Virus record (IMG/VR): IMGVR_UViG_3300032240_002557 | Location: 1-64,000 of that record | Reading direction: 5' to 3' (one strand) | Length of the DNA: 64,000 bases | Origin: a virus | Shown: positions 22,956-55,214 of the stretch, one piece after another | How the letters are laid out: each line of letters begins with the position of its first letter | Numbering within the stretch: position 1 is the stretch's first letter | Position numbers and translations under genes: made by a program | Notes under the pieces: generated by a model | The model's input: the letters and a program-made list of their open reading frames with translations, nothing else | What the model was told of the DNA's origin: nothing | Database searches by the model: none

Positions 22956-23519
22956 ATGAAGCTACCTAAAAAATACCTGACAAAAAACCCTAATGTCATG
23001 AAAAGGGAAATTAAAAAACATGGGGATAAAGAGGATAATGATTCTTCTGCATATGGTCCATGGGATGCTGATTATAAATCAAGAAAAGCGGGAAAAGGTA
23101 AACCAGTAGAAACAAAACCAAGCAAATACACATCTAAATACAAGAAGATGTATGGTGAAAGTTTAGAAATACCAGATTTTAAAGGATTTATGGAAGCTAT
23201 AGAAATAGCAGCATGGGAAGTTTACGACGAGCTTAAAGAATCAGAGGATATCAATGAGGGTGTTGATTCCCCATCCAGCCCCGTGAATAAAGCACTTAAG
23301 AATAAATCAGATAAGACCAGATTTCCATTAGGTATACTTAAACAGGTTTGGAAAAGAGGATACGCTGCCTGGAAAAACGGTCATATTCCAGGAACAACCC
23401 CACAGCAATGGGCAATGGCTAGAGTTAATTCATTTGTAACTGGTGGTAAGACGACTAAAATGGGAGATAAAGCTTTATACCAAAGGGGCAAGGCTAATAA
23501 GAAAAAGAAAAAAAAATAA
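22956..23519 (+). CDS. Basic two-domain viral protein (C-terminal DUF5824-like domain), probably nucleic-acid binding
   Basis: ILKQVWKRGYAAWKNGHIPGTTPQQWAMARVNSF; Lys-rich; internal DFKGFME and DINE|G motifs. Confidence 0.6.
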   Translation: MKLPKKYLTKNPNVMKREIKKHGDKEDNDSSAYGPWDADYKSRKAGKGKPVETKPSKYTSKYKKMYGESLEIPDFKGFMEAIEIAAWEVYDELKESEDINEGVDSPSSPVNKALKNKSDKTRFPLGILKQVWKRGYAAWKNGHIPGTTPQQWAMARVNSFVTGGKTTKMGDKALYQRGKANKKKKKK

Positions 23520-23525
23520 TATTAT

Positions 23526-24932
23526 ATGTTAAAATTTATTAAACTATTTGAAGAGTTTTCAAAAATGCAGTTTCCTGAATTCTCTATGCCAAATTCTTAT
23601 GAATTACCTAAAGGGCTTTCTGAAAAAGGCATCTATGTTCTTCAATTAAACGAGGTACCTGATAATGATTGGTATATTCTAGCGGATTATGAAACGATTA
23701 AAAAAATATACAAAGCGTTGAATATTTATTTAATAGCAGAAGAAATAGAAGGGTATTATGATATTTTTTATGGAAACAACACGAGGGAAGAGGTTATTAG
23801 TAGAAAACAAAAGATAGAAAGAAGCTTTGAGATAAGAATAGTAGCAGAAGCATATAAAGACGGAGGTCCTTACTGGGTATATTTTGGAAAGCAAGAGGAC
23901 TGGAGCTTAGCACAATTAAAGGACATAGCAGCAAGCTGCCAGGTTTGCGGAATTGAGCCAAGAAAGGATTCCCTGGTTCCGGGGGATTCAAAGAAGAATG
24001 ATTCAGGAGAACAAAGGTTAATAATTTTTGATCAAAATAGGGAACTGAACTTAACTCCTTTATACTTTGATAGTAAAACCAAGTGGGATCAATTTTACGG
24101 AAAGAAGGATGAAAATAATTTGGACATGGCTTTTTATGTTAAATTTGAAAAACCTTCCCTTTTTATGGATAACGTACACCCCGGGGATACGGCCCAGTAT
24201 GACTACAGATTCCTGGATAAATTTTTGGTTAATCCGTCAGCTCTTATTAATCTTCTGAAAAGAGGATATGAATATCTAGACACTGTGGCGGAGGAGATAA
24301 AAGACCGAAATAATAGAGAGGATTTTATTTCTTCTGTGATGTCAGCACTCGTAGATGTGGGTGTTTCTGCGAACGTACTCAGTTTTATATCTTCCAAATT
24401 ACAGGCAAAAGAAGATTACGAATCGGGTGAATTAGTAAATTATTATAGAATTCCTGTCACAAGCAAGGTAAGACGGATGTTAGACTGGAGCGGTAAGAAT
24501 TTTTCAAAAGAATATGATGCACATCAAGGATCATTCCATTTGGGGGTTATTGATGATCGAAAAATATTAGATTATATTATAAGTAATCTTCCAGAAAAAT
24601 CTAGCGATATAATAGATCTCATTAATTCCAAACCAGACTCATATTTTAATGCCCTTGGAAATTATTATGCTGAAGCTAAGTTAAATGGTGAGGAAACTGT
24701 TTCAGGGCAGAGAATGAAAGAGATCTTGAATTATAATGTATATCTAATAGATTATAAAAATATAGAGAATGCTACATTTAAGAAAGTAGAGAATATGGAC
24801 TTTAGTGATTTTAACGATCAAACAAATTGTATTTTTGAGGTAGGAATATTAGATGATATTTCATACGATTACATTAAGACAATAGATCCACTAGATCTTT
24901 ACATCTCTATATTTTATGGATTTAAAAAATAA
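23526..24932 (+). CDS. Hypothetical protein with capsid-targeting-like leader
   Basis: 468 aa; begins MLKFIKLFEEF. Confidence 0.6.
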   Translation: MLKFIKLFEEFSKMQFPEFSMPNSYELPKGLSEKGIYVLQLNEVPDNDWYILADYETIKKIYKALNIYLIAEEIEGYYDIFYGNNTREEVISRKQKIERSFEIRIVAEAYKDGGPYWVYFGKQEDWSLAQLKDIAASCQVCGIEPRKDSLVPGDSKKNDSGEQRLIIFDQNRELNLTPLYFDSKTKWDQFYGKKDENNLDMAFYVKFEKPSLFMDNVHPGDTAQYDYRFLDKFLVNPSALINLLKRGYEYLDTVAEEIKDRNNREDFISSVMSALVDVGVSANVLSFISSKLQAKEDYESGELVNYYRIPVTSKVRRMLDWSGKNFSKEYDAHQGSFHLGVIDDRKILDYIISNLPEKSSDIIDLINSKPDSYFNALGNYYAEAKLNGEETVSGQRMKEILNYNVYLIDYKNIENATFKKVENMDFSDFNDQTNCIFEVGILDDISYDYIKTIDPLDLYISIFYGFKK

Positions 24933-24940
24933 AAGGAGTA

Positions 24941-25174
24941 ATGGAAAAATACGGATATAAAAACATCAGCACAAGAAGCGAATTTGAACAAGCTTCAGCA
25001 AAAGACGGTAGTCATTCTTTTTCTTATAACTCTGGAGATCATGTAGGTAATTACGGATTTATTAATTGGGGCGATCAGAATCAATGGGGATCACCGGGTC
25101 AATCTAAATATTCGGTTAAGACTGTAGATCAATTACTAAATGCGGGTAAAACTGTTTCAGAAACTTCTAAATAA
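24941..25174 (+). CDS. Small hypothetical protein
   Basis: 77 aa; AGGAG 5' of the ATG; fills the gap up to the convergent gene. Confidence 0.55.
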   Translation: MEKYGYKNISTRSEFEQASAKDGSHSFSYNSGDHVGNYGFINWGDQNQWGSPGQSKYSVKTVDQLLNAGKTVSETSK

Positions 25175-28489: not shown

Positions 28490-28501
28490 CTAATTTATAT
28501 T

Positions 28502-29188: not shown

Positions 29189-29193
29189 AATTA

Positions 29194-29769: not shown

Positions 29770-29790
29770 TTTATTTTTTTTATATTTAAT

Positions 29791-32363: not shown

Positions 32364-32382
32364 AACGATTTCTCTCTTTATT

Positions 32383-33116: not shown

Positions 33117-33845
33117 ATGAAAAATTTACAACCATACTGGTTCTTACAGAATCCAATTGATGCTGAGCATAAGTATTATGTTCTAATGGACTTCTTGCAA
33201 TCGGTTGAAAGAGACTTAGACGAAAAGAAATATTCAGATCAGATCCAAAGAATAACCCGGGTTTATTCGGATTTGAAAACATTTCAAAAATCACACAAGT
33301 TAAACGATAAGACACTTAAACTAATGACCCAAGAGGAGCTTGATCGAATGAAAGAACTTGTGAGAGATATCAAAGATAACGAAGAGGTAGAAGAAATATT
33401 AATAAAGAGTATAGAGACCTTAGATTCTTTTATAGATAAGATCCATCCATACATCAAAGAGATTGAAAAATCCCTAACATTTAAAATACACAACGAAGAT
33501 ACTTTTTCTAAAGATCGGGGTTATATGATTATTAGAAATAATAAGAATAAGAAGATGAAAATTTATTCTTGGATGTTTTCTATTATCAAAGTCGATGATA
33601 TCGATCAAGTTGGATTACTCTTAAGCGAATTAATGGATCCCTTGCCCAATTACACTAAATCGGATAAAAAAATATACGATTTCTTTTCTAAGGAAATTAA
33701 TAATTTTTCCCCACATAATGATTGTTTTATTATAGTGGATTTAGAAAAAGGAAAAAGCGAAGATGAAATATCTTTCGATTTAATAAAAGAAAGATCGATT
33801 GAATTTATAGTAAATAACTATAGATTATATCTTTCACTGTTATAG
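33117..33845 (+). CDS. Hypothetical protein
   Basis: 242-aa ORF. Confidence 0.65.
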   Translation: MKNLQPYWFLQNPIDAEHKYYVLMDFLQSVERDLDEKKYSDQIQRITRVYSDLKTFQKSHKLNDKTLKLMTQEELDRMKELVRDIKDNEEVEEILIKSIETLDSFIDKIHPYIKEIEKSLTFKIHNEDTFSKDRGYMIIRNNKNKKMKIYSWMFSIIKVDDIDQVGLLLSELMDPLPNYTKSDKKIYDFFSKEINNFSPHNDCFIIVDLEKGKSEDEISFDLIKERSIEFIVNNYRLYLSLL

Positions 33846-34403
33846 TTCTCTTTTTGAGAATCTGTCGCACTTAGCAACAACACTGTCAAAATCTTCTTGT
33901 TTAATCCCTGCAGTTGCTGGATTAAAATCCTCGAAGTCTATGTATTTCTCGTCAATCTCCGGATACTCGTTAACAAATGCTATTTTAATCATTCCTTCGT
34001 ATGGTGAATAATAAAGGTCGCAAATAGTATTGCTATATTTCACTCCGTTATAACAAAGCATATAACCATCGGGAAGAATAATAGGTCTATAGTTAGATCT
34101 TGCGTCTAAATACTTTTCAACCTTAGGAATTAGTTTATCTATTGCTTCCTGCGAGGATGTCCTTAATGTGTTGATTCTAAATGCTCCGGATGATCTAAAA
34201 ATTACATCCATTAGCTCCCTTCTTTCGATAGTGTTTAATTCCTTGTAGATCATTTCAAGGTCTTCACAGAAATCATTCTTGGTATATCCTAATCGGTGGT
34301 CATACACCTTAGAATATTTAAACGGCGGAGTTTCCGCACCCCTTTCGTGAGATCCTGCAGACGTGCTTTCAAATAGCCCTTTATATGTTTTTAGATGTTT
34401 CAA
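33840..34403 (-). CDS. Hypothetical protein with capsid-targeting-like leader
   Basis: TTG start, MKHLKTYKGLFE|S; GGATATATAG upstream. Confidence 0.65.
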   Translation of the reverse strand: MKHLKTYKGLFESTSAGSHERGAETPPFKYSKVYDHRLGYTKNDFCEDLEMIYKELNTIERRELMDVIFRSSGAFRINTLRTSSQEAIDKLIPKVEKYLDARSNYRPIILPDGYMLCYNGVKYSNTICDLYYSPYEGMIKIAFVNEYPEIDEKYIDFEDFNPATAGIKQEDFDSVVAKCDRFSKREL

Positions 34404-34415: not shown

Positions 34416-34425
34416 CTATATATCC
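34416..34425 (-). promoter_or_regulatory. Candidate late promoter GGATATATAG
   Basis: 12 nt upstream of the 34403 start; recurrent motif. Confidence 0.7.
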
Positions 34426-34445
34426 AAGGGTTTGTTTTAATAAAA

Positions 34446-34455
34446 GGATATATAA
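34446..34455 (+). promoter_or_regulatory. Candidate late promoter GGATATATAA
   Basis: Divergent partner of the 34416 copy, upstream of 34475. Confidence 0.7.
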
Positions 34456-34474: not shown

Positions 34475-35194
34475 ATGAAAGTTGTTAAATATTCAGAATT
34501 TAAACTGAAAGAATCTAAGGTTAATGAGGCTAAATATCTTATTATGGCTGAAAACCTTGATGCTCATCACCAAGACATGATCGCAAAAGGATTAAGTGAG
34601 TCTGAGATTAACGAAGGACTTGGTGATCTTTTAAGCTCTTTGGGTGGTGGTTTTACTGATAGATTAAAGAACTATGCAGCTGGTTGGTTACTTAAAAAGC
34701 TAGGATTACCTGCAGATAACATGTTTCTTTCAGAATGGGCAAAGAACATCGTGGAGAATATCTCATTCATGCACATTGGTAATTATTTTGGTAAAGGTTC
34801 TTGTAGATACTGGGCAGATGCTATAGGTAAAGGACTACTAGAGACGTTAGAAGAAAAAACCTTAGGACTTATTCTTTCTAAAGCTATCGGTATAGATGTT
34901 AACTTTAATAGCGGTTTAGGCGGTACGTTGATGGGTTCATTACGTGAGGCATTAACAAACTATATAAACAACACTGACTTTGTTAACAATTTATCTGCTA
35001 AATTAGAAGGAACAGTTTGCGGAGAGGGAACTTCATTTACTAATATATTTGGGGGAGGTAAAGTTTCCCCAAAGGATATAGCAGGTGCTGTTAAGACAAA
35101 AGAGGAAAACGCAGCATCTAATGCAGCAGGACTTGGAGATATAGTTTCTCCAGAAAAATCCGGAGGAATATTAAGCCTTTTGGGAATACAATAA
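34475..35194 (+). CDS. Putative internal virion protein (Gly/Leu-rich amphipathic), start probably 34475
   Basis: MKVVKYSEF...VNE|A and INE|GLGDLLSSLGGG; GGATATATAA upstream. Confidence 0.65.
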   Translation: MKVVKYSEFKLKESKVNEAKYLIMAENLDAHHQDMIAKGLSESEINEGLGDLLSSLGGGFTDRLKNYAAGWLLKKLGLPADNMFLSEWAKNIVENISFMHIGNYFGKGSCRYWADAIGKGLLETLEEKTLGLILSKAIGIDVNFNSGLGGTLMGSLREALTNYINNTDFVNNLSAKLEGTVCGEGTSFTNIFGGGKVSPKDIAGAVKTKEENAASNAAGLGDIVSPEKSGGILSLLGIQ

Positions 35195-35207: not shown

Positions 35208-35462
35208 ATGAACATTAAAGACGTTAAAAAAAGAGAGGTTTTAGACTTTAAGCAGTTTTTAAAAGTTGCTGCTGATCCGTGGAATAAAAAGAACCTTAGT
35301 AAGGAAGATAGAACAGGTGCACACGAGATAAAACTTGAAAAACCTTACGAGTATGTTGGATATGGTGATTCAATTTTTAAACACCAATCTAAAATAGATT
35401 ACCCAGGAACAGGAGCTCAGGAGTCAGGAATGGCTGCTAATTTGGGAACTCCTGCAGAATAG
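35208..35462 (+). CDS. Small hypothetical protein
   Basis: 84 aa; VLDFKQFLK near the N-terminus. Confidence 0.6.
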   Translation: MNIKDVKKREVLDFKQFLKVAADPWNKKNLSKEDRTGAHEIKLEKPYEYVGYGDSIFKHQSKIDYPGTGAQESGMAANLGTPAE

Positions 35463-35491: not shown

Positions 35492-36088
35492 ATGGAAAAA
35501 AAGATACTAAGTTTTGAAGAATTTTCTAAGCAATATGCTGAGGGAGCATTTGATCAAAACACAGATATGGAGGATTCCACACAAGAAACTCCGGATGAAA
35601 ACGTAGAAGATGACGGTGGCGCAGATTCTATAGATTTCACATCAGACGACGAGACTGAAGATGAAAACGAAGAAACAGACGGAGTTCCTGCAGATGACAT
35701 GGAAGATGATTCAGAAGATATGGATTCTGAAGATGAGGGGGATTCTGATAGTGATCTAGAAGATGCTGCTTCTGATGATGACGGTGAAGAAGAAGAGGAG
35801 TGGGAGGAAATGGAAGAAGACGAAGATTACGAGGAAGAAGAAATGGACGAGGAAGAAGAGGAGATGGAGGATTACGAGGAAGAAGAAATGGACGAGGAAG
35901 AAGAGGAGATGGAAGATTACGAAGAGGAAGAATGGGAAGAAGAGAACGAAAATGAGCATGAGCACGAAGAACATGAGTCTCATGAAGAAGAGCATGAAGA
36001 ACACGAGCACGAAGATGACGAAGAAGAAGATGAAATAGAGGGAGCAGAAGAAATTTACAACCCTGCATTCAACAGCTTTTTCAACTAA
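35492..36088 (+). CDS. Hyper-acidic (about 55% Asp+Glu) protein with capsid-targeting-like leader
   Basis: MEKKILSFEEFSKQYAE then Asp-rich, Glu-rich and His/Glu-rich blocks; has its own promoter motif and terminator. Confidence 0.75.
   Translation: MEKKILSFEEFSKQYAEGAFDQNTDMEDSTQETPDENVEDDGGADSIDFTSDDETEDENEETDGVPADDMEDDSEDMDSEDEGDSDSDLEDAASDDDGEEEEEWEEMEEDEDYEEEEMDEEEEEMEDYEEEEMDEEEEEMEDYEEEEWEEENENEHEHEEHESHEEEHEEHEHEDDEEEDEIEGAEEIYNPAFNSFFN
35825..35930 (+). repeat. 45-bp tandem repeat (DYEEEEMDEEEEEME, about 2.3 copies)
   Basis: GATTACGA recurs at 35825, 35870 and 35915 with near-identical intervening sequence. Confidence 0.85.
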
Positions 36089-41847: not shown

Positions 41848-42704
41848 TGTATTGTTCTTTTTACTTTCATTTTAAGTACGGATAACTTGTTGTTTAAATC
41901 AAGTAATGCTCTTTTATGTGCATCATTTAATTTATTTATTTGTTCTTCTGATAATCTATAAGAAGGTATATCACCACCCCTATAGGCTTTAGTTTTCAAA
42001 GATTTAAGATACATGATCTTTTCTTTATGCTTAGCATCAAAATCAACTTTCATAATTTGACCATCTTCAAGCATTTTTGCTAAATCTTTCTTAGGTAATG
42101 AATTGATGTCTTGAATGAATTCATTCAGAGGTTTATCAAACATACCCATAGTATATTCATCGTAATCTTCGTATGAAAATTCTCTATCCGAAAAACTTGG
42201 TCTAGAATTAACTTTCTGAGCTTGATCGTCCAGCTCTTTCCAGTGATTATAAAATTGTTCTTCATAATTATAATCTTTAAATCTTTTAGATTTTTCGTAT
42301 GCATATTGAGCTATTCTAGAATCTGCCTGAGCTTTCTCTTTATTATAAAAGGCTATTAGATCTGCATTCTTTTTGCATATTCTAGCAGCTTGATTTCCTA
42401 GAACCTTTACCTCTGCTGATTTTGCTGATTTTAGAGCATCTAATGCTCTTCTTGCCATAAATCCTTTATGCTTTGCATCGGTCATTTCTACAGGATTTCC
42501 TTTCCTCTGAGATTCACTAGAGAATACTATATAATTCAATTCATCAGATTGATCTAAGAATTTCTTTTCAAGCGCTTCCATATTAGAAATAAGGGCTGAA
42601 AGCTTTTGCTTGTCACCTCTAATAAACGAAGCAGCACCGCCTATAAGATCTTTTAATATGCCTTCGTTTATTCTACTTGATATGAAGTCTGAGTATTTCT
42701 TCAT
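41844..42704 (-). CDS. Putative internal head protein (helical)
   Basis: MKKYSDFISSRINE|GILKDLIGG; related to 42707..43876. Confidence 0.6.
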   Translation of the reverse strand: MKKYSDFISSRINEGILKDLIGGAASFIRGDKQKLSALISNMEALEKKFLDQSDELNYIVFSSESQRKGNPVEMTDAKHKGFMARRALDALKSAKSAEVKVLGNQAARICKKNADLIAFYNKEKAQADSRIAQYAYEKSKRFKDYNYEEQFYNHWKELDDQAQKVNSRPSFSDREFSYEDYDEYTMGMFDKPLNEFIQDINSLPKKDLAKMLEDGQIMKVDFDAKHKEKIMYLKSLKTKAYRGGDIPSYRLSEEQINKLNDAHKRALLDLNNKLSVLKMKVKRTIQ

Positions 42705-42706: not shown

Positions 42707-43876
42707 TTACGCAGCTTGCTTAATTTTTTCTTCAACTTCTGCCAAAACCCCTTCAATATCCGATGCCTCTCTGTAGATATTATCTTTATAATCTTTTATA
42801 CTATCAGGATTGTCTGCATTAGGTGTATTCTTAACTGGATACTCAATAAATTTCAATCTACTTACTCTTCTTTCAGCTTCTTTCAGTTTTGTTAGACATT
42901 TATCCTTAATCTGAACGTTTTCATTATCTGCTGTCTTAACTACTGATATTTTAGAAATTGCTATGTTCATCAGATTCATACAAATCTTTTTAAGATCGTC
43001 GAATGTTCTTTCTCTGTTTCTGTATTTATTAATTCCCCAGGCTTTAGTCTCAACAGATTTTTTCATCTCTTCAGATTCTTTCTTAATAAAATCGCTCAAT
43101 TCTTTAACTGATGCTAGGATCTCTTTTGAATAAGTCTCAAACACATTCTTAATTTTCTCAGAAGGCATTTTAGTAGTTTCATCTTTAGCTCCTAAATCTG
43201 TTTTGATCTTGTTTAAATCGTCTTGTGATTTTTTAAGGTCTTCTTCTGCTTTTTTAGGATCGCCTAACATATCCTGTATGCCTTTTAAGTACCCTTCTTC
43301 GTCAGAGGCAGCAACTAATTTCTTTTTAAATTCTGCTCTCATCTTCTTAGTCTCTACTGAATCCTCTGCTCTCTTTAAATTGTAATACTCAGATTTTCTA
43401 TTATTCTTCTTTGTTAGAATATTCACTTGTTTTTCTAATTCATCCATAATAGAATTATGCGATGATACTAAATCTTTTAATAACTTTTGGACTTTAACAA
43501 GTTTAACCCGAATCGAATCAAGTTCTGTTTTATCAGCTTTATCCATTCTTAGCTGAGCAAGTGCAGAGCTTAGCTTATAAAATTTATTCTCTGTTTCATG
43601 CTCGTCCTTAATGAACTTGATCTCTTCATCTTTCATTTGCTGAAGGATTTTGTCTATCTTACCTATATCACCTCCTAAATTCTTGGAAAGAAAATTCATA
43701 ATTTTATCCCCAATACCCTCGTTAATTCTATAAAGATTTTCACAAAGTACATCTTCATCAACTTTTGAATATTTACCGTTCATCAACTTCATCTTGGCAA
43801 TATCAACGTTACCGTATGATTCAATGATTGCTTTTTTACAATCTTCGTAAAAATTAAAATTTTCTAATAATTCCAT
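42707..43876 (-). CDS. Putative internal head protein (coiled coil)
   Basis: RINE|GIGDKIMNFLSKNLGGD; GGATATATAA upstream. Confidence 0.6.
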   Translation of the reverse strand: MELLENFNFYEDCKKAIIESYGNVDIAKMKLMNGKYSKVDEDVLCENLYRINEGIGDKIMNFLSKNLGGDIGKIDKILQQMKDEEIKFIKDEHETENKFYKLSSALAQLRMDKADKTELDSIRVKLVKVQKLLKDLVSSHNSIMDELEKQVNILTKKNNRKSEYYNLKRAEDSVETKKMRAEFKKKLVAASDEEGYLKGIQDMLGDPKKAEEDLKKSQDDLNKIKTDLGAKDETTKMPSEKIKNVFETYSKEILASVKELSDFIKKESEEMKKSVETKAWGINKYRNRERTFDDLKKICMNLMNIAISKISVVKTADNENVQIKDKCLTKLKEAERRVSRLKFIEYPVKNTPNADNPDSIKDYKDNIYREASDIEGVLAEVEEKIKQAA

Positions 43877-43891: not shown

Positions 43892-43901
43892 TTATATATC
43901 C
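43892..43901 (-). promoter_or_regulatory. Candidate late promoter GGATATATAA
   Basis: Restarts transcription immediately after the capsid terminator. Confidence 0.7.
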
Positions 43902-43976: not shown

Positions 43977-45719
43977 TTAAGCGATACCGCCTGCTGGCAC
44001 TTGAGCGAAGAAAGTCAAGTACATAGTTTGAGGGTGGTGTCCAGCCTCTACTAATGCATATCTTGATTTTACTGCGATCTTTGGTGACATTGTACCTTCA
44101 GAGATAGTCTGAATTGATTCAGCCATCATGTAAGGCATAAATTTGATACCTGGTTCGTCATCAGCACCTTTTCTTCCAATCAATACTCTCGTATCTCCGA
44201 AAGACATGTTTTGATCAACATAAACAGTCATACCAGCGATTGAACCAACTGGGTATAAAGTACCGTTATTTTGAGTTAACGTGTTTGTGAAAGGAGCGAA
44301 TGTGAATTGGCTGATATCTTGTAAAGCAGAAGCTACTTGAGAGTTAGTAACGATGAAGTTAGCAGGTCCTCTTCTTCCTCTGTTTGCTACTACGTTAGCA
44401 GCAGCTAAGATTCTTGAGAATAATCTTCTTTGAATAGTTGATTGGTTCTCGTATCCGCCTGAAGCAGGTCCATCAGGTTGGTTGATAGTAACTGATCCGT
44501 TATCCTTACCGATGTAAGACTTATCGTTACCAGATCCACCGATCTCTAATGTGATGTTTAATGAGTTGTTAGATGCACCACCTAATTCAGTGTTTGCAAA
44601 CTCATAGTGGTTAGACCATCCTAAAGCAAATGCTCTAGATAAGATGTGCTTGTTAATAGCTTGAGAAACCTCGTTAACAAGTGCGTTCTCGATCATAGAA
44701 ACTACGTCGATACCGAATTGCTTGTTCAAATCTTGGATTTGCTCAGTAGTAACAGAAGCAGCAACTTGGAATGTACCAGCCTCTACAAACTTAGTGAATG
44801 TAGAAAGACCTAATGACTTGAAGTAAGTGCTTTCTGCAGTTCCTCTTGACATTGGATCGTAAGCCTTAGTACCATCTACGTATGGTCCTTGCCATGCTGC
44901 TGTGTTATCTAAACCAGCACCAGTAAATCCTTGTACGTGATCTTCTAAAGTTTTAACTAAAGTAGCCGCGCCATTTGAATAACCTGCTGTTGCAGAAGCT
45001 GTGAAGCTTGAACCGCCCCAAGTACCTGAATAGATAACAGAGTTAGCGTTAACTGCATCAGCGATTGAATAACCAGCAGATAATGCAGTAACTTGGAAAA
45101 TAGGGAAACCGTCAATTCTTGAATTACCGATGAACTTAGCAACTAATTTGCTAGTACCACCTGTAACTGATACAGAACCTGATAATCCGCTAGCACCGAT
45201 CAAATAGTTTGTACCAACTGTTAAACCAACAACTGGAGAAGCTACTGATGTAGGAACTTTGATTAAATCAGGAGCGTTAGCTGTGTTAGGAGATGTAGTA
45301 TCAGTACCGGTTAATTTACCGCCTGCATATACATAATCTAAGTAAGATAATACGCCTGTAGGACCAGACATTGGGATAACTGGAACGATATCAAAACCTA
45401 CTGTTTTAGCAGCTACTTGAATAGCTAAAGGTAAAAGAGAAGGGAATTTATCGCCAGAACCAAGACCTGTTCCAGAATAAGAACCGCCAGCATAGAAACC
45501 AGCAGCACCACCGTTCAAACCTACGTTTGAAGCTGGAGATACTTGGCCCATACCGTTTAATACGCCTAGAGAGTTATACGCTCCGGCAGATTCGTTTAGA
45601 GAGTGATAGTGGCAATATGTTGTTAACCAGTCTAATTTTCCTCTCTCTTGAATACCTGTTTTGCTCTCTAAGATAGGAGCCCAGGTTTCATAGATTTCAT
45701 GTTTGTTAATTAGTTGCAT
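43977..45719 (-). CDS. gp23: Major capsid protein (T4 gp23-like)
   Basis: WAPIL, FDIVPVIPMSGPTG, TTEQIQDL...GID, IANRGRRG-type VANRGRRGPANFIV, FMPY...MSPKIAVKSRYAL; strong codon bias; followed by a terminator. Confidence 0.93.
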   Translation of the reverse strand: MQLINKHEIYETWAPILESKTGIQERGKLDWLTTYCHYHSLNESAGAYNSLGVLNGMGQVSPASNVGLNGGAAGFYAGGSYSGTGLGSGDKFPSLLPLAIQVAAKTVGFDIVPVIPMSGPTGVLSYLDYVYAGGKLTGTDTTSPNTANAPDLIKVPTSVASPVVGLTVGTNYLIGASGLSGSVSVTGGTSKLVAKFIGNSRIDGFPIFQVTALSAGYSIADAVNANSVIYSGTWGGSSFTASATAGYSNGAATLVKTLEDHVQGFTGAGLDNTAAWQGPYVDGTKAYDPMSRGTAESTYFKSLGLSTFTKFVEAGTFQVAASVTTEQIQDLNKQFGIDVVSMIENALVNEVSQAINKHILSRAFALGWSNHYEFANTELGGASNNSLNITLEIGGSGNDKSYIGKDNGSVTINQPDGPASGGYENQSTIQRRLFSRILAAANVVANRGRRGPANFIVTNSQVASALQDISQFTFAPFTNTLTQNNGTLYPVGSIAGMTVYVDQNMSFGDTRVLIGRKGADDEPGIKFMPYMMAESIQTISEGTMSPKIAVKSRYALVEAGHHPQTMYLTFFAQVPAGGIA

Positions 45720-45732: not shown

Positions 45733-47805
45733 TTATTTTTTAAATCTAACTTCTAGTGCTTCTGAAAGATTTTTTAAATACTCGCTGGAAACACCTTTTG
45801 GTTGATTCTCTTGTTTTTGGGATTCGTCTATTCTTTCGACGTTTGCCTTAGATGCACCGATACCTCTTGTTGCCCAGAAATTCTGGATTTGATAAGGTGT
45901 GTCTAATTTATAGAATTTGCTCTGTGCCATGATTGAAGCTTTTTGACCCTCATTCATTGACTCCCAAGAGTTTCTATATTTTTCTGGCATAAGATCTAGG
46001 AATTTTTCACCTGATTGATTTTGCTCATTTAAGGTTTTACCCATGATATCAATTACCTCTTTTTCGGATGAGTAATTGCTCTCGTTAAGTGCTTTTGCTG
46101 CCTTTTGTTTTTGGCCTTCGTGCATTGCTAAGAATTGATCTTGATTCTCTTTGCTCATAAGCTTTAAGAAAGGATAATTTTTTTGCTCTGCTATTTGTTC
46201 TGTCTTTTGTTTATTGACAGTTTCTAACAAGTTGTCTATTTTAGAAGAAATTCCAGTGTAATCACCAGCAAATCCTGAAGTGTTTGCACTTTCAGAAATA
46301 GCTTTAGTTACTGCTTCTTTAACTTCTTTTGTTCCGTTAGCTGTATTCACTGTTTCAGCAATGTATTCAGCATAACTAATATTGTTAGCTAATTTCTCAG
46401 CTAAGTATTCACTGTAATGAAGTGATTTGTCTAAATTCTCACCTAAGTAATCAGAGTAAGCTAAACCTTTATCTAGGTTTTCTGCTAAGTACTCAGAATA
46501 AGAGATATTCTTATCTAAGTTCTCTGCTAGGTATTCAGAATAAGCTAAACCTTTATCTAGGTTTTCTGCTAAGTACTCAGAATAAGAGATATTCTTATCT
46601 AAGTTCTCTGCTAAGTATTCTGCATAAGAAATGTTCTTATCTAAATTCTCAGCTACGTATTCTGTATATTTAATGTTTTTGTCTACGTTCTCTGCTACGT
46701 ATTCTGCATAAGCAATAGATTGATCAACTTTCTCTGTTAAACCTTTAACTGCTGACATGTTGCTATCAACATTCTCTGCAATATACTCAGAATAAGAAAT
46801 GTTATTGTCTAAATGCTCTGCTAAATATTTAGCATAAGAAATAGATTTATCAAGATTTTCAGCAAGATATTTTGAATATGAAGTTGTGTCTTCTAAGCTT
46901 TCAGCTAAGTATTCGCCATACTTAATAGAAGCTTCAAGGTTTTCTGCCAAATAATCAGCATATCTCTCTAACTTTTCTACTCTTTCCTCAAGGGAAGAAC
47001 TTGCTTGTGTTTTAGAAGATTCTTTAACGCCTCTTAATGATTCAATAGACCCTTTAATAGTGTCCATTTCTTTTTTAATTAGCTTAGAATATCCATTCAT
47101 TTCTTCCGCTGTAACGAAATTATTTTCCATGATTAAATTCTTATTTGGCTCCTTATTTAGAAGCTTTTGTATCTTTTCTTGATCTTTTATTCTATATATC
47201 TTAAAATTAGAGTTTTCCTCTATTCCTAAGCTTTCATTCATTAAAGGAAGACCTTTTAAAATAGATTCATTTTTAATTTTTTCACTAACTTCGTGTCCAA
47301 GACTTTCATATACTCTTTCTAATTGAGCATTTTCAAATCCAGGGTCAGCAACTAGATCGTAAGTAAAGATCTTCTTGATTTGTACTTTTTTGTTCTCTAA
47401 CACATTACCAGCTGCTCTTGAAGAGATTGAAACTGGAATACCTGCATCAACTAAAGATTTAGCAATTTTACCTGCTGGTGTATCTAAAAGTCTTACTTTA
47501 ATCCTTAATGTTCTATCGTTTTGATCATAGTTAAGTTCTTCAACTAGGTGAGAGATGTTCTTCAAAGAAACATCAAACTCTTTTGGGTGATCTAATTCAC
47601 CTACTAATCTTTTTTGCTCTATCTTTTCTTTTAAATATTGCAAATGTGGAAGATACTCTCTTTCCTCGTAGATTCTTTGATTAGAATTCTCCTTACCGAA
47701 AACTGCTGCTATCCCCTCAAGGAAATAGTCATTACCTGATTTTTCAGTCTTCAGGTTTTGCGAAGATTTTTCTAAGACTAAAACGAATTCGTTATTAAGG
47801 TTCAT
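45733..47805 (-). CDS. gp21: Prohead protease (gp21-like) fused to a scaffold domain (gp22-like)
   Basis: LEGIAAVFGKENSNQRIY, GELDHP (His), ISSRAAG (Ser), YDLVADPGF, then a long helical repeat region. Confidence 0.9.
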   Translation of the reverse strand: MNLNNEFVLVLEKSSQNLKTEKSGNDYFLEGIAAVFGKENSNQRIYEEREYLPHLQYLKEKIEQKRLVGELDHPKEFDVSLKNISHLVEELNYDQNDRTLRIKVRLLDTPAGKIAKSLVDAGIPVSISSRAAGNVLENKKVQIKKIFTYDLVADPGFENAQLERVYESLGHEVSEKIKNESILKGLPLMNESLGIEENSNFKIYRIKDQEKIQKLLNKEPNKNLIMENNFVTAEEMNGYSKLIKKEMDTIKGSIESLRGVKESSKTQASSSLEERVEKLERYADYLAENLEASIKYGEYLAESLEDTTSYSKYLAENLDKSISYAKYLAEHLDNNISYSEYIAENVDSNMSAVKGLTEKVDQSIAYAEYVAENVDKNIKYTEYVAENLDKNISYAEYLAENLDKNISYSEYLAENLDKGLAYSEYLAENLDKNISYSEYLAENLDKGLAYSDYLGENLDKSLHYSEYLAEKLANNISYAEYIAETVNTANGTKEVKEAVTKAISESANTSGFAGDYTGISSKIDNLLETVNKQKTEQIAEQKNYPFLKLMSKENQDQFLAMHEGQKQKAAKALNESNYSSEKEVIDIMGKTLNEQNQSGEKFLDLMPEKYRNSWESMNEGQKASIMAQSKFYKLDTPYQIQNFWATRGIGASKANVERIDESQKQENQPKGVSSEYLKNLSEALEVRFKK
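46350..46963 (-). repeat. About 15 tandem 14-aa repeats (YSEYLAENLDKNIS) including a near-exact 84-bp duplication
   Basis: 42-bp periodicity; the stretch beginning at 46457 recurs at 46541. Confidence 0.9.
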
Positions 47806-47824
47806 TCTAAGTTTTTTTATTTAA

Positions 47825-47834
47825 GTATATATCC
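47825..47834 (-). promoter_or_regulatory. Candidate late promoter GGATATATAC
   Basis: Upstream of the protease-capsid operon. Confidence 0.7.
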
Positions 47835-47851
47835 GTTTTTCGTTAAGCTTT

Positions 47852-50443
47852 TTATGGTTTAGGCATATTTGATGCCTCGGGTGCTTTCGAAGTAGATTTT
47901 TTGCCTTCTTCTTCGCTCTCTCCTTTTTTAACTATTTTAACACCCTGGTTAGCTAGATCAAGTTGTTCTTCTGTAATATCTTTGATATTTTCTGCTAGTT
48001 TACTCTCATTTGAGTTCAATCTATCAATAGCTTCTTTAACAAGTGTTAATCCATCAGAATAATTAACAGTATCTCCTTCCTCTAAACTTTTTGCATCAAA
48101 ATCTGGGAAATTGTGGCAGTCTCTTTTTAGAGTTGAATGAATTTCTTCTATCTCTGATTCAAAAGTTTGCTCTTCACTTTTTGCGTACCTTTCTTTAAAA
48201 TCTGCCCAAGCAGATATTGCTGCTGTTCTTTCTTTATTAGCGGTCCATGCACCTTTTAGTAAACAAAGTGTAGCCATAATTGCTTGAAGATCTTCTCTTG
48301 AAACGAATCCGTCTATTGTATTAATCATTCCTCTTGTTATCTTAAGCATACCTGCTCTTGAAATAAATCCATTACCAACTGATATTGCTACCTTTGTTCT
48401 GGTTCCCCACCAAGCTGTTCCCATTCCTGATAATGCGCCTGCTCCTACTGCTATAGGTACTGATCCAACTGCAAGTGCTGCTCCCCCACTAGCTGCTGCA
48501 GCTACCGTTGAGCCTAATCCAAGTGAAAGAGCTAAACCCCCTGTTGATGCTGCTGCAGAAGTTGCTGCTGCTCCCATTAAAGCACCAGATCCTGTTGTTA
48601 CCGCTCCTATTGCACCGCCTACGCCTGTTGCTGTTCCTGCAGCTACTGCTGGAACTGCAGCACCTAATGTAAGTGCACTAGCAATTACAATTGCTGTTAC
48701 AGCTCCTGTAACTTCAGCAACCTGTAAGGCTGCCTCACCCGATGATTCGTCATAATTAATGACATAAATTCCGTTGTCTGCTGGTTTTAATCCTTGCCAT
48801 TTCTTTTCCTCAACTTTCTTATTATCATCATTATCTACTATTACGTCTTGAATTATTTTATCATCTTTATAAGTAGAACATACAGCATCAGCTATAGAAA
48901 GTTTATTTTTATCGCTACTTCCTTCACCACTTACCTGAGGCTTGCTACCGACATTTTTTGCTTTATCAACTAAAGATTTTTCAGCATCTTTCACTGCGTC
49001 AAACACGCCTTCATTAAGTATCTTAGAGAAACTATCAAAAGAAACGACTGATGTTCCTTCATTATATTCTGCTTCAAATATTTTGCTTTCTAATACTTTA
49101 CTGTAATCTAAAGAATCTTTTACTGGTTTAACAGGTGCATCAATTGTTTGTATTACTCTTTGTCCTCCTACGATCTTATTGTGCATGTCCTGTGTTAATT
49201 CACCGGTTGCACTAAATGCGGATGATTTTGTCAAGTAAGCATAATAAATATTAGCTAACTTAGATGTTACCTTACCGTATTTACCATCTGCTCCTCCTGC
49301 TTTGTTAATCAATTCAGCAACACAAGGTCCAAGCTTCATTAAAGCCTCTTGTACCTCAACTACAACATCGCATTTAGTACTACTAATTTGAATAGGGAAA
49401 GCACAATCTGTTGTTGTAACAACATTATCATCTCCAGTTTTCTTCTTCTTTTTCTTCTTTTTGTTCGGATCAACTGTTGTTTCTGCTCCTTCTACACCTG
49501 TACTTGACTGTGCTAAAGCAACGCATTTTCCTTTATTAGGATCGTATGCTTGACCAACAGGACAAATAACTATAGGTTGTGGAGGTGTAGGAACGTTTCC
49601 TATTCTATATTTAAGCTTATTAAATTCTTCTCTCTGTCTTGTTATCTCTGTAAGAATGTTTTGTACTTGTACTTTAAAATCCGATCTTTTTAAATTTCCA
49701 GAAGCTGTAGGAACCTTACCAGCTCCGAATAAACCTTTATTACCACCAATTGGCTGAATTTTTCTAGCTTTATCTAAGAGCTGTTGTGCTTGGTCTGAAA
49801 ATCTTTGGATGTCTGCATTTCCTGCATATGCCTTATTGCCCATTGCTGCTGAGGTTTCACCAGCAAACGATGTTGCAGCATCTAAAGCATTCTTAGCATA
49901 CTGTAAGAATTTATTGTCTACTCTAACGTCTTGGGTTTGTCCTTCCTCACCGGTTAAGTCTGTTTGTTGCTCAGAAAGATATTTAGTTAAAAGACTTTCG
50001 TTTTGTTGAAGTTGAGCTTTATTAGCTTGTAAAGCAGAGATTGTAGTTCCTGCGTAAGCATTCATATCATCTAAAACCTTTTTAAAGTTTTTAGCGTCTT
50101 CCCCAACTAAAGGTTTTAATTGATCAAATAAAGTCCCTAAATATGTCTTTGTTTGTTGATAAGCAGCTTCTTGAGCTTTATCTTTCATAGCGTATTCGTC
50201 AATCTTCTTAATAAATTCTTGTCTAAGACCATCGATAGAGCTAACTTGTAATAGTTTATCTACAAAAACTTTAAATCCATCAGGAGTTTTAATTGACTCG
50301 TCTGATCCCATAAGAATAACATTAACAAGAGTATCATAGATAGTTCTGCTAATTAATCCTGGGTTGTTTTTGGTCTCCTGTTCGTATAACTCTTTCTTTA
50401 GAGATTCGAAAATAGGATTGTATCCGTTGTAAATTCCTGACAT
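47852..50443 (-). CDS. Putative internal/ejection protein with peptidoglycan-binding-like motif and a long Ala/Gly hydrophobic segment
   Basis: NPIFE|S leader, VQEALMKLG...ADGKYGKVT, SFDSFSKILNE|GVFDAV, about 100 uncharged residues (approx. 48405-48712). Confidence 0.6.
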   Translation of the reverse strand: MSGIYNGYNPIFESLKKELYEQETKNNPGLISRTIYDTLVNVILMGSDESIKTPDGFKVFVDKLLQVSSIDGLRQEFIKKIDEYAMKDKAQEAAYQQTKTYLGTLFDQLKPLVGEDAKNFKKVLDDMNAYAGTTISALQANKAQLQQNESLLTKYLSEQQTDLTGEEGQTQDVRVDNKFLQYAKNALDAATSFAGETSAAMGNKAYAGNADIQRFSDQAQQLLDKARKIQPIGGNKGLFGAGKVPTASGNLKRSDFKVQVQNILTEITRQREEFNKLKYRIGNVPTPPQPIVICPVGQAYDPNKGKCVALAQSSTGVEGAETTVDPNKKKKKKKKTGDDNVVTTTDCAFPIQISSTKCDVVVEVQEALMKLGPCVAELINKAGGADGKYGKVTSKLANIYYAYLTKSSAFSATGELTQDMHNKIVGGQRVIQTIDAPVKPVKDSLDYSKVLESKIFEAEYNEGTSVVSFDSFSKILNEGVFDAVKDAEKSLVDKAKNVGSKPQVSGEGSSDKNKLSIADAVCSTYKDDKIIQDVIVDNDDNKKVEEKKWQGLKPADNGIYVINYDESSGEAALQVAEVTGAVTAIVIASALTLGAAVPAVAAGTATGVGGAIGAVTTGSGALMGAAATSAAASTGGLALSLGLGSTVAAAASGGAALAVGSVPIAVGAGALSGMGTAWWGTRTKVAISVGNGFISRAGMLKITRGMINTIDGFVSREDLQAIMATLCLLKGAWTANKERTAAISAWADFKERYAKSEEQTFESEIEEIHSTLKRDCHNFPDFDAKSLEEGDTVNYSDGLTLVKEAIDRLNSNESKLAENIKDITEEQLDLANQGVKIVKKGESEEEGKKSTSKAPEASNMPKP

Positions 50444-50454
50444 TTTAATTTTTT

Positions 50455-51207
50455 TTATTCGCTATAAATTTTGTCGTAAGAAGCTGATATTAGGTCGATC
50501 AGTTTCTGTATATATCCTTCGTTTCTGAGCTTTTTGAATACCAAATTCTCTACGGAGAATTCCCCCCTCTCTGCTAATCCTTCTTTACGCATCTTCATGA
50601 TCTGGCTTTTAACTTTTTCTGAGTGTTCGTATAATTCTCTAGGGGTAATATCCGATTGATCGCTAGTCCCGTTTAGTAATGCCTGTAATTGATTTACATC
50701 ATTAACAATACCTTCAAATTTGGTCTGTACGTCTCTCTCGTCTATCTGTGGAGGATTGTACTTAGGTACCCTGATCCAATCATTGTTTAATAGGGAGAAT
50801 AGACCTGATGCAACGTGTTGCTCTCTAATATCCTGGAGATAAAGCTCAACATCGTGCCCTCTTATAATTACGTTATGCCTTAGATTCCAAATGAATCTTT
50901 GACCGTCTACTGATTTTTTAACTAAATCTATGTCCGGATTAATTTTAGAGAAGTCTATTAGAACATGAACGTCAAGATCTGATTTTTCTGTCCAATTATA
51001 ATTTGCAAGAGATCCTGTAAGTTGGATGTCTTCAATAGGAATGTCAAGTTTAAAAACTGCGTAAAATTCTTCAGCAATCTTAAGAAGCTTAGCTCTGACG
51101 CTTTGGTCAAAGTTTAAATTCTCCCAAAAGAGTGTATTCAATTCCCCTTGATAGAATTGATCCTCATTTAAAACCCAATTAGTAAAATTTTTGATGCGAC
51201 TACCCAC
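50455..51207 (-). CDS. Pol-beta superfamily nucleotidyltransferase with capsid-targeting-like leader
   Basis: LTGSLANYNW...SDLDVHV (hGS...DxD) and VELY; leader MGSRIKNFTNWVLNE; GTG start. Confidence 0.8.
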   Translation of the reverse strand: MGSRIKNFTNWVLNEDQFYQGELNTLFWENLNFDQSVRAKLLKIAEEFYAVFKLDIPIEDIQLTGSLANYNWTEKSDLDVHVLIDFSKINPDIDLVKKSVDGQRFIWNLRHNVIIRGHDVELYLQDIREQHVASGLFSLLNNDWIRVPKYNPPQIDERDVQTKFEGIVNDVNQLQALLNGTSDQSDITPRELYEHSEKVKSQIMKMRKEGLAERGEFSVENLVFKKLRNEGYIQKLIDLISASYDKIYSE

Positions 51208-51222
51208 CTGAATATTTTAGTA

Positions 51223-51232
51223 CTATATATCC
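51223..51232 (-). promoter_or_regulatory. Candidate late promoter GGATATATAG
   Basis: Upstream of the nucleotidyltransferase gene. Confidence 0.7.
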
Positions 51233-51247
51233 AGTAAGGGTTTATTG

Positions 51248-52764: not shown

Positions 52765-52780
52765 CTTTGTAGTGTTTTTA

Positions 52781-52788
52781 CAAATATA
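52781..52788 (-). promoter_or_regulatory. Possible Bacteroidetes-type -7 promoter element TATATTTG
   Basis: Matches TAnnTTTG, upstream of the nei gene; no clean -33 TTTG. Confidence 0.45.
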
Positions 52789-52814
52789 AAGAAAATCCCC
52801 GTGAAATTAAAATG

Positions 52815-53585: not shown

Positions 53586-53606
53586 CCCTATTATAATTTT
53601 TTGTTG

Positions 53607-54293
53607 CTAAATAGTTTCGAATTCCTCAAGTGTCATCTTGGGCCAAGATTCAATCATACTTTCGGTTGAAAGGTTAGCTATTTTTACTCCTTTGGCTATT
53701 AGTGCTTTACCAAGTTCTGAATATTCGGTCACAGTCTGATCTATCTGTCTATTAACTATATGTGTTCCAGTTTCAGCAAAGAAATGATTTTGCGTGAAAT
53801 CAACACCAACCATAGCTATTTTAGATGCACCCATTTGGTATGCTATTATGATAGCCATATATGGTGAATTTGTTGTGTAGTCTATGAATCCATAATTTTG
53901 TAAATCCACACCCCCATATTTTCCAAGATTTAAAATCACCTTTTTAGAATCATCTATGGGTAAATTTGATAAATGAGTAAAAACCCATTCCGAAGTATTA
54001 TCCTTTACGTATTTCCAGCGATCCCACTTGAAAGTATTTGGTGTATTTACAACAACTAAATATTTACACCATACTTGCCTTCCTGCATCATTAACACCGA
54101 TCGTAATATGATTGTCAAAGCTATCGAAATTTTTTAAAGATGCGCCACACCCGCAAATAACAAAAGATCCATCCTTGTGGGCATTTATAAAATCCTTAAA
54201 TCTTCCTAGATCTTTATGTTGAACCGAATTTTCAACCGGATTTATGTTCTCTTCTGGAAATGAAAGTTTTCTTCTAATTCTTTCTATTGACAT
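53607..54293 (-). CDS. MAF/MptE-like (GT29-like fold) putative glycosyltransferase
   Basis: FVICGCGASL, IGVND, AYQMGASKIAMVGVDF...HFF. Confidence 0.65.
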   Translation of the reverse strand: MSIERIRRKLSFPEENINPVENSVQHKDLGRFKDFINAHKDGSFVICGCGASLKNFDSFDNHITIGVNDAGRQVWCKYLVVVNTPNTFKWDRWKYVKDNTSEWVFTHLSNLPIDDSKKVILNLGKYGGVDLQNYGFIDYTTNSPYMAIIIAYQMGASKIAMVGVDFTQNHFFAETGTHIVNRQIDQTVTEYSELGKALIAKGVKIANLSTESMIESWPKMTLEEFETI

Positions 54294-54296
54294 CTT

Positions 54297-55214
54297 TTAT
54301 CTTTGAGGTAGGTATTCACTCATTGATGGAACTAATTCGTCTGCAGCTTCACCGTAAGAAACACCATGCTTCTTCATAAAGTTGGAAGCTATGATTTTAT
54401 ATGCTTCTTTCAGTCCTTTGTTTCTAAGGATCTGAGCAGCTAAAAGATCACTATACTTTTCGTCAATACTTTTATTTTTGGTTAAAGCTTTTGCAGCTTC
54501 TACTGCTTCTATCACTGTTAAATGGTTGTCATTAAACTTAGAAAAATTTTCATCATTTCTGTTGATATAGATTGCTTTATTTTCGGGAACCGAATAAATT
54601 GGGCCTAATTTTTTAAAATTCTCTATATGATGTTCATAATCAGGATGATTAGTGTCTATTAAAACAACTTGAATATTTGGGTCAATAAATCCAGGCCTTT
54701 CCATAACGCCAGTTCCTTCCTGAAGTAATAGATCTGTTTTTATGTTAGCACTCTTTGATTCTAAAGATCCCCAGATAAAATTACCATTGTTATATTTTAA
54801 CGCAGTCATAAATTTTTGTTTATTACTTATAGTTGATGCTCCCATTTCTTTTTTTAATATATTACCATTATCTGAGTGTGGTTCTACTGCATAGCTAGGA
54901 ACTGTATAGATTTTACTCGTTTTAATACTTCTTACTTTTAAGATAGTATCCTTTCCGTTTGCAGTCCTTGATGTTGAAACAACCTCAGCGATAATTTTAT
55001 TTTTATTAACGCCTCTTAGTTGTGCTTTAACAATATCCCCTGTTTGGTATTGTTCTCCCTTAACATAATCGTATGGATTTACGTCTCTGCCAACTGCTTT
55101 AGACAAATCATCGAAAGATTTATATTTAACTTTAAATACACCGTTTGAGCTATTAAATCCGTCACCGGAAAAAGTCTGCGCAAATTGTTCGTTTATTTTT
55201 TTGATCTTTGTCAT
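54297..55214 (-). CDS. Hypothetical protein with capsid-targeting-like leader
   Basis: MTKIKKINE|QF; 305 aa. Confidence 0.6.
   Translation of the reverse strand: MTKIKKINEQFAQTFSGDGFNSSNGVFKVKYKSFDDLSKAVGRDVNPYDYVKGEQYQTGDIVKAQLRGVNKNKIIAEVVSTSRTANGKDTILKVRSIKTSKIYTVPSYAVEPHSDNGNILKKEMGASTISNKQKFMTALKYNNGNFIWGSLESKSANIKTDLLLQEGTGVMERPGFIDPNIQVVLIDTNHPDYEHHIENFKKLGPIYSVPENKAIYINRNDENFSKFNDNHLTVIEAVEAAKALTKNKSIDEKYSDLLAAQILRNKGLKEAYKIIASNFMKKHGVSYGEAADELVPSMSEYLPQR

Follow-up and report, generated by a model that had tools for sequence, protein, structure and literature searches.

The stretch of viral DNA analysed here, positions 1 to 64,000 of IMG/VR record IMGVR_UViG_3300032240_002557 (hereafter, the window), comes from a 99.9-kb phage contig with a G+C content of ~33%, of which it forms the first 64 kb. 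An earlier note on this DNA had proposed that about a dozen open reading frames (ORFs) lying between 22,956 and 55,214 begin with a shared leader peptide that ends at a protease site, and that the phage uses these leaders as a generalised tag for loading cargo proteins into the prohead. All 11 peptides that it listed were found at the claimed ORF starts and coordinates. By capsid protein, the closest database phages are the Lak megaphages and the uncultured huge phage LR756500, at ~43% identity; other huge uncultured phages and Tenacibaculum phage PTm1 follow near 32%. In IMG/VR, 80 related loci have capsid identities of 63-86% and lie on contigs of up to 435 kb, which places the phage in an uncultivated jumbo-phage clade; one of these relatives has terminal repeats and is rated complete. 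The window is predicted to come from the genome of a jumbo myovirus with a T4-like head module that comprises a gp23-family capsid protein and a gp21-family protease-scaffold protein.

The protease-scaffold gene, on the minus strand at 45733-47805, encodes a 690-aa protein in which a prohead protease is fused in frame to a scaffold. The protein matches Pfam Peptidase_S77 (34 bits, against a cut-off of 27), with Peptidase_S80 as a secondary match, as well as PHROG 207, head maturation protease. Its protease domain (residues ~1-175, nt 47281-47805) shares 28% identity over 113 residues with T4 gp21 (BLASTP E=8e-11 for the pair), and His85 and Ser140 of T4 gp21, which we take to be the catalytic residues, align with H73 and S128, both invariant in 33 homologues. 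A profile of the protease domain matched the T4 gp21 structure 5JBL in the PDB (E=7.5e-4), and a whole-length protease-scaffold profile had no match there. By these comparisons, the N-terminal domain is assigned to the T4 gp21-family (Peptidase_S77) proteases. Beyond the domain lies the junction site MNE↓SLG (residues 189-192, nt 47230-47241; the arrow marks a predicted cut here and below), which has an invariant N190 and conservation of at least 90% at E191 and S192, making it a plausible candidate autocleavage point. The scaffold domain contains ~14 tandem repeats of 14 residues, YSEYLAENLDKNIS (residues ~283-485, nt 46351-46959). Its described richness in LAE and xNE sites was borne out: we counted ~12 LAE and 5 xNE sites, and the density of [LIVMFY]xE, at 8.4% versus 2.8% in the proteome, is three times that of the proteome. 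Because the repeats are rich in LAE sites, this part of the protein looks like a scaffold destined for degradation, like T4 gp22.

Next to it, the 580-aa major capsid protein (43977-45719, minus strand; Pfam Gp23, 139.7 bits) begins with a predicted propeptide of 43 residues (nt 45591-45719) that is predicted to be cut at two sites, ILE↓S (residue 18) and SLNE↓S (residue 43). The start of the protein can be aligned with the propeptide of T4 gp23 (WAPILES versus WKPLLEG), and the SLNE↓S site, noticed earlier, is present within HSLNESAGAY, which is invariant among the capsid homologues listed. We therefore assign the protein to the T4 gp23 family, with a propeptide that is predicted to be cleaved.

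Leaders were defined by a composite regular expression (regex), ^M.{1,8}[FYW]xx[FYW].{0,14}[LIVMFY]xE, in which two aromatic residues three apart stand within ~10 residues of the initial Met and a hydrophobic-x-Glu follows 0-14 residues later, within ~30 residues of the Met. The capsid gene is followed by genes for two distant paralogs, of 389 and 286 aa, and members of this 286/389-aa family invariably follow the capsid gene. The all-helical 286-aa protein (41844-42704, minus strand) has the leader MKKYSDFISSRINE↓G (nt 42663-42704), with Tyr4 and Phe7. In an alignment of 41 sequences with 14-43% identity to the window copy, the sole invariant columns are E14, the predicted P1 residue, and G30. 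The AlphaFold model has pLDDT <50 at residues 2-4 and 8-27, a short helix predicted at residues 4-10 and long helices from residue 23; Foldseek found nothing similar to this model among viral models at E<=0.001, and tblastn of the protein found no match in cultured phages. In the 389-aa paralog (42707-43876, minus strand), the propeptide is longer and contains two sites, AIIE↓S at residue 19 (nt 43820-43876) and RINE↓G at residue 53 (nt 43718-43729). The first is kept as ALIE↓SYG in close homologues. The second lines up with the only site in the 286-aa protein and in distant homologues, whose N-terminal leader, M-x-L-x-F-x-[EQ]-W-...-LNE↓[SAG], corresponds to it.

A minus-strand gene with a GTG start (50455-51207) encodes a 250-aa protein of nucleotidyltransferase (NTase) fold with the leader MGSRIKNFTNWVLNE↓D (nt 51163-51207). 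It matches PHROG 36119 and, weakly, Pfam NTP_transf_2; PHROGs and Pfam gave no family for any other cargo candidate. Foldseek matches in the PDB, all of them pol-beta-type NTases, are too weak (TM 0.2-0.28) to point to a specific function. In the AlphaFold model (mean pLDDT 84), pLDDT falls below 50 at residues 1-15 only, which is the predicted leader; tblastn matches in other phages begin at residues 18-22, just past the predicted cut; and the homologues in Maribacter phage Molly and cyanophage MA01, whose genes lie away from head genes, have different N-termini without the composite motif. The leader behaves as a portable add-on.

Two much larger proteins, both encoded on the minus strand, share an N-terminal NP[ILV][FY]E↓S, and each has one internal aromatic module at a conserved position. 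The 863-aa protein (47852-50443) begins MSGIYNGYNPIFE↓S (nt 50405-50443), and homologues with 37-40% identity keep YNP[IV][FY]E↓S. Its internal module is FDSFSKILNE↓G (residues 469-479, nt 49007-49039); in the corresponding F.DF...[LVI].E, the aromatic pair is found in 12/12 aligned sequences and the Glu in 8/12. The 727-aa protein (39664-41847) begins MRNEIVNPLFE↓S (nt 41815-41847); NPLFES is kept in close homologues, and the 825-aa family of distant relatives begins NP[VI]A..[LI][LF]E. Its internal FKTYSKIVNE↓G (residues 209-219, nt 41191-41223) is conserved as FN[TS][FY]N..[VI]NE↓A in five homologues. The 863-aa protein, whose gene adjoins the protease gene, was considered as a portal and rejected, the portal and its paralog being encoded at 62462-65742.

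Four smaller proteins complete the set. The 187-aa protein (33840-34403, minus strand, TTG start) has the leader MKHLKTYKGLFE↓STSAGS (nt 34368-34403), and three homologues (26-46% identity) keep a leader and hxE↓S[ST]SAGS (h, hydrophobic) while the residues change, as in MNRISNFSKFILE↓SSSAGS. The 239-aa protein (34475-35194, plus strand) has, besides the leader MKVVKYSEFKLKESKVNE↓A (nt 34475-34528), a further site, SEINE↓G (nt 34607-34615); its homologues, including the 222-aa family of distant relatives, start h-K-x-F-[ED]-x-F ... [IV]NE. After its leader MEKKILSFEEFSKQYAE↓G (nt 35492-35542), the 198-aa protein (35492-36088, plus strand) is mostly Asp and Glu; only close homologues of it were found. 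The 305-aa protein (54297-55214, minus strand) begins with the short leader MTKIKKINE↓Q (nt 55188-55214), which has no aromatic pair. In its family, M-K-[HY]-I-K-x-I-N-E occurs in 79% of 57 members and the Glu column is 98% conserved, second of 160 columns; the leader is probably a cleavage site, from which a targeting role cannot be read. Searches of the ESM Atlas with the 305- and 239-aa proteins gave nothing above chance.

Across the contig, the composite leader was found at 9/96 N-termini (p=2e-4), against a regex background of 2.1% when anchored at internal Met residues, and 8/9 of these matches fall between 23.5 and 51.2 kb. The enrichment of leaders at N-termini, which the earlier note had put forward for checking, thus holds for the composite motif (9/96 versus 2.1-5%); bare [ILV]xE was tried as a test and set aside as unconvincing alone, its enrichment in the first 25 residues being just 1.3-2.3-fold. 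The higher background of ~5% comes from T4 ORFs, with 4 false positives among 83. The same regex recovers all three of IPI, IPII and IPIII from the T4 record. One of the T4 ORFs scored as a false positive, gene 57B (L089:13953-14411), adjoins ipI and begins MMEFKDFSTGLYVAAKFSE, which follows the leader pattern. In a close relative of 245 kb, the regex matches 21/268 ORFs, and several further convincing leaders were seen there (e.g. MKYIKIFEDFSTGTSLNE, MKHLKLFTPFINE, MKRIQNFKTFNSVNE and MKTLKTYKNFLNE), for about 15 plausible tagged families. An SbcC-like repair protein encoded outside the window (91441) also matches the regex and is a probable false positive.

The 1,247 ORFs from the contig and the 80 related loci were clustered by all-against-all BLAST. 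Among the 29 multi-member families obtained, seven have the regex in at least half of their members (p=2e-6 at the 2.1% background; p=5e-4 at 5%): the capsid family (99%), the 286/389-aa family (85% of 124 members), an 89-aa family seen in the relatives only (79%), the 250-aa NTase family (78% of 55 homologues), a small 242-aa family (67%), the 863-aa family (62%) and a 222-aa family distantly related to the 239-aa protein of the window (51%). In neighbouring AsnB-like, UvdE, exonuclease, P-loop and other families, 0-16% of members match, mostly 0, and the real N-termini of at least 20 control families in the same genomes gave the same figures. The leader families are mutually non-homologous in the all-against-all BLAST except for the 286/389 pair, so that the description of the tagged proteins as unrelated stands for the families but not for these two distant paralogs. 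The relatives (L001-L080) also carry leader families that are absent from the window, namely the 89-aa family (MLKFKEFLIKE↓A; L020:13901-14161), the 222-aa family (MSRIIKNFDSFSGEETNE↓A; L019:20587-21252) and several singletons, which suggests a rapid turnover of tagged proteins, as at the internal-protein loci of T-even phages.

Leader lengths in eight families run from 10 to 26 residues, and the median for a family lies at 11-24 (at 11-19 for the five largest). The [FYW]xx[FYW] pair is present in 51-99% of the members of seven families and is not part of the 305-, 727- and 863-aa leaders. At the site, Leu, Ile or Val occupies P3, and at P2 Asn is commoner than Ile, Leu or Phe; P1 is Glu, and P1' one of Ser, Ala, Gly and Lys. 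The most conserved leader positions are the hydrophobic P3 and the P1 Glu, the latter invariant or nearly so. These positions have a bearing on whether the leaders might be amphipathic N-terminal peptides that stay uncleaved and serve another purpose, such as chaperone binding, membrane association or portal docking. That the 286-aa protein has a short helix predicted in its leader, and that an 84-aa family (described below) keeps the aromatic pair without a Glu site, would suit such a purpose; but it would leave unexplained why conservation peaks at the Glu and at P3, why a gp21-family protease of matching specificity is encoded next door and why the capsid and scaffold carry the same sites. 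We regard it as very improbable.

Codon usage bears on the level at which the leaders are conserved. At the conserved Glu, GAA:GAG counts in four families are 56:25, 18:19, 10:16 and 8:7, and at other conserved leader positions Leu is specified by six codons and the aromatics by TTT, TTC, TAT, TAC and TGG. This free synonymous variation indicates that selection acts on the peptide rather than on an RNA or translation-start signal. A search for sharing of leaders between genes at the DNA level found nothing convincing. With a hidden Markov model (HMM) built solely from the 286/389-family leaders, the N-termini of the other candidate families rank first among families; the 198-aa protein has the top N-terminus in the contig (13.8 bits, empirical p=0.0002), and the leader of the 239-aa protein, which is unrelated to the training family, scores at p=0.002. 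Chance, aided by composition bias in an AT-rich genome in which N-termini are rich in Lys, Asn, Ile, Phe and Tyr and xxE is common, would be in keeping with the slight enrichment of bare [ILV]xE, with the ~5% of T4 ORFs matched falsely and with the match to the SbcC-like protein. It accounts poorly for control families that are mostly at 0, for a family-level p <=5e-4, for the positional clustering of the matches, for conservation at 14-43% identity and for codons that vary while amino acids remain constant, and we find it barely credible. The similarity of the leaders is real and beyond chance.

We think it likely that these peptides form a T4-type propeptide system for capsid targeting and processing, served by the gp21-family protease. 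From the presence, enrichment and protein-level conservation of the motif, together with the families of the protease and capsid, all of them observed directly, we infer docking, cleavage, packaging and ejection as follows. At least eight late-gene families would be made with an N-terminal propeptide of 9-26 residues: the 286/389-aa pair, the 239-, 187-, 198- and 305-aa proteins, the 250-aa NTase, the 863- and 727-aa giants and the capsid protein. In most of them, on the model of the T4 capsid-targeting sequence (CTS), the aromatic pair three residues apart (e.g. Y4 and F7) would dock the protein onto the scaffolding core during prohead assembly. Once the shell has closed, the prohead protease would cut at [L/I/V]-[N/x]-Glu where the next residue is Ser, Ala, Gly or Lys, so that the mature protein is released within the head, and would also chop the scaffold repeats (YLAE↓N) to small peptides. 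The giants, with NP-x-F-E↓S at the N-terminus and an internal aromatic module, would probably yield at least two pieces each. Of the proteins set free, some, with the NTase as the clearest case, would likely be ejected with the DNA, as are T4 Alt and the T4 internal proteins. Our confidence is lower for targeting than for cleavage, and lower still for delivery into the host.

The resemblance to T4 covers both the tag and its processing machinery. Like the T4 CTS, the leaders are short N-terminal propeptides (10-20 residues in the T4 system) on otherwise unrelated proteins, with aromatics at i and i+3 (Y4/F7 in T4 as in MKKYSDFISSRINE) and a hydrophobic-x-Glu site. The Peptidase_S77 protease with the same His and Ser, the gp23-family capsid protein with a homologous propeptide start and the expression from late genes are likewise shared with T4. 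T4 Alt, an ADP-ribosyltransferase that is expressed late, packaged and injected, has a short propeptide ending in Glu (MELITELFDE↓), and the layout of the NTase is analogous, although its fold is pol-beta-type. Unlike in T4, more families are tagged here (at least eight in 100 kb), the aromatic pair and the site are separated by anything from 0 to ~12 residues, P2 is mostly Asn, the module also occurs inside ~800-aa proteins, and the protease and the 14-residue-repeat scaffold form one polypeptide, whereas T4 has a gene for each, 21 and 22. In sequence, the distance from T4 is very large, with local gp23 matches only and the protease identity of 28% holding over 113 residues.

A different role for the leaders has to be set against this. 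The peptides could be prohead-protease propeptides on assembly parts of the core, scaffold or shell, with the aromatic pair acting as a protease exosite and not as a targeting tag. The internal position of the aromatic-pair and hydrophobic-x-Glu module in the 863- and 727-aa proteins, together with its occurrence in the capsid protein, where YCHYHSLNE places an aromatic pair just before SLNE↓S, suits a signal that says where to cut better than an N-terminal address; the 286/389-aa family is made of long helices and always follows the capsid gene; and the acidic 198-aa protein resembles a core filler. In T4, by contrast, suppressor analysis of the IPIII CTS (MKTYQEFIAE) assigned targeting to residues 4 and 7 and processing to residues 8 and 10 (PMC9026906), so that the two aromatic positions carry targeting apart from processing. 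The NTase, leaderless and away from head genes in other phages, has gained a leader here, and homologues of the 863-aa protein that lack the Glu still keep the aromatic pair. On balance, an exclusively structural role with a protease exosite seems unlikely to us. The earlier proposal of a generalised tag accordingly keeps the T4-family capsid and protease, both CTS determinants, the conservation of the leaders and their add-on behaviour on its side, but the cargo role that it gave to the tagged proteins could, for the 286/389-aa family, instead be one in the core or scaffold.

Several points weigh against the T4-type targeting and processing system. The regex was shaped after the list of peptides in the earlier note had been seen; independent families and T4 then served to test it. 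At the conservative background of 5%, the enrichment in the contig is marginal (p=0.05). The leaders are short, and with the leader HMM their individual empirical p values are only 0.0002-0.07. An invariant early Glu was tried as a discriminator and dropped, control enzymes also having one, for catalytic reasons. By its modelled fold, the 286/389-aa family looks more like helical core or scaffold proteins than like cargo. The nearest cultured relative has only ~32% capsid identity. Finally, no composite motif was found in the 10-kb flanks of the capsid genes of Lak-A1 (read with TAG as Gln) and LR756500, and the composite leader may therefore be confined to this clade.

The earlier note overstated the novelty of a tag that loads varied proteins. 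That T4-like phages load a variety of proteins by means of the CTS had already been suggested in a review (PMC9026906), and the giant phages phiKZ, 201phi2-1 and SPN3US cut many head proteins after Glu, at [S/A/G]xE, mostly to remove long propeptides (PMC5694885). Like these phages, the present one has a jumbo genome and many head proteins, including candidate ejection proteins, with Glu sites, which are predicted here; phiKZ-type proteases autocleave C-terminally, and the conserved MNE↓SLG follows the protease domain here; and paralogous head proteins share conserved N-termini in both. Unlike in phiKZ-type phages, whose proteases belong to Peptidase_S80, whose site is [S/A/G]-x-Glu and whose propeptides mostly exceed 100 residues, P3 is nearly always Leu, Ile or Val here, the leaders are short and Peptidase_S80 is a secondary match. 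The present findings would thus extend a mechanism defined in T4, CTS plus gp21, to a deeply divergent, uncultivated jumbo clade, and do not describe a new kind of system. The interest lies in how many families are tagged, in an enzyme that appears to have gained the tag, in the internal modules of the giants and in the fusion of protease and scaffold.

Both functional determinants of the tag can be recognised by sequence alone, which would make the leader a practical filter for those uncharacterised huge-phage proteins that are head-internal and possibly injected. Head-internal proteins of T4 include anti-restriction (IPI*) and host-takeover (Alt) factors. The T4 CTS has already been used to package foreign proteins in T4, and the leaders found here offer natural variants of such a packaging tag. 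A broader proposal, which we hold only tentatively and with more doubt than belief, is that the T4 CTS is an ancient portable address label that has survived with the same two determinants in a very distant uncultivated jumbo clade (245-435 kb), where in each genome it would tag at least 15 fast-turnover families, some of them enzymes taken over from non-structural regions, and would also occur inside ~800-aa polyprotein-like ejection proteins. If this is true, the leader would make it possible to read the injected proteome of unculturable huge phages by sequence alone and so to find candidate anti-defence effectors.

Many of the leader genes are preceded by a promoter-like motif. GGATATATA occurs in nine exact copies (at 22323, 34417, 34446, 36151, 43893, 47826, 50509, 51224 and 58093) against 1.06 expected, 14-33 nt upstream of starts. 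A divergent pair (34417-34454) stands before the 187-aa gene (34417-34425) and the 239-aa gene (34446-34454), and further copies precede the 389-aa gene (43893-43901), the 863-aa gene (50509-50517) and the NTase gene (51224-51232); AGATATATA lies 26 nt upstream of the 198-aa gene. Leaders and the motif co-occur, with an odds ratio of 8.6 (p=0.006) in the contig and of 4.1 (p=0.014) in the 245-kb relative. The association of the motif with leader genes that the earlier note described is therefore there, but the motif is not particular to them: GATATATA is found 14-33 nt before the starts of virion genes generally, including those for the sheath, portal paralog, tail fibre, protease and RimK-like protein. 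As it precedes the sheath, portal-paralog and tail-fibre genes too, GGATATATA/GATATATA is a general late-gene signal. An exact GATATATA is also found on the minus strand at 47193-47200, in the linker between protease and scaffold and upstream of two in-frame Met codons, Met226 and Met236; this internal late promoter might allow separate production of the scaffold part as well.

Two of the 11 peptides listed earlier did not find support, and another two belong to the 286/389 paralogs. The first of the unsupported pair, a 468-aa protein (23526-24932, plus strand), begins MLKFIKLFEEFSK and is a weak candidate: it matches the regex and has an empirical p=0.045 with the leader HMM, and its P1' residue would be Glu, which is atypical. 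No homologues were found in five related genomes, and those in a large protein database are all close (76-79% identical), so that conservation says nothing about this leader. A variant late motif, GAATATATA, lies upstream of the gene that precedes it in the operon. The second, an 84-aa protein (35208-35462, plus strand), has a conserved LDFKQFL at residues 12-18. Its aromatic pair is kept in 40 loci, yet it was rejected as a cleaved leader: the peptide starts at residue 11 and is not N-terminal, no hydrophobic-x-Glu follows, and the regex matches 0/41 members.

Other genes of the contig show features that bear on head and tail proteins. The very basic 187-aa protein encoded at 22956-23519 (plus strand), just before the 468-aa gene, has a C-terminal DUF5824 domain, an internal leader-like WEVYDELKESEDINE↓G (residues 87-102) just before this conserved domain and, ahead of its gene, the variant late motif GAATATATA; it may be one more head protein that undergoes processing, with a long propeptide. 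At 36178-39076, adjoining the gene for the poly-Asp/Glu 198-aa leader protein, a RimK-type ATP-grasp gene and a convergent asparagine-synthase-like gene are found; the RimK-type gene has the late motif, and its protein has a weak Zn_protease-like match at the C-terminus. Near the end of the window, the portal gene and its tandem paralog, with products of 560 and 531 aa (PHROG 213, E ~1e-58 to 1e-60), run from 62462 through the window end at 64000 to contig position 64144 and from contig position 64147 to 65742, with terminase, sheath and tube genes beyond. The two portal paralogs have similar N-termini (MAGFIDNF... and MAGFLEDN...), and the second has its own GATATATA motif. Further along the contig (80812-81972, minus strand), directly downstream of a 1132-aa sheath gene, two tandem paralogs of ~190 aa have near-identical N-termini, MAGLPHF[TS]SAKA..., and look like duplicated tail-tube genes.

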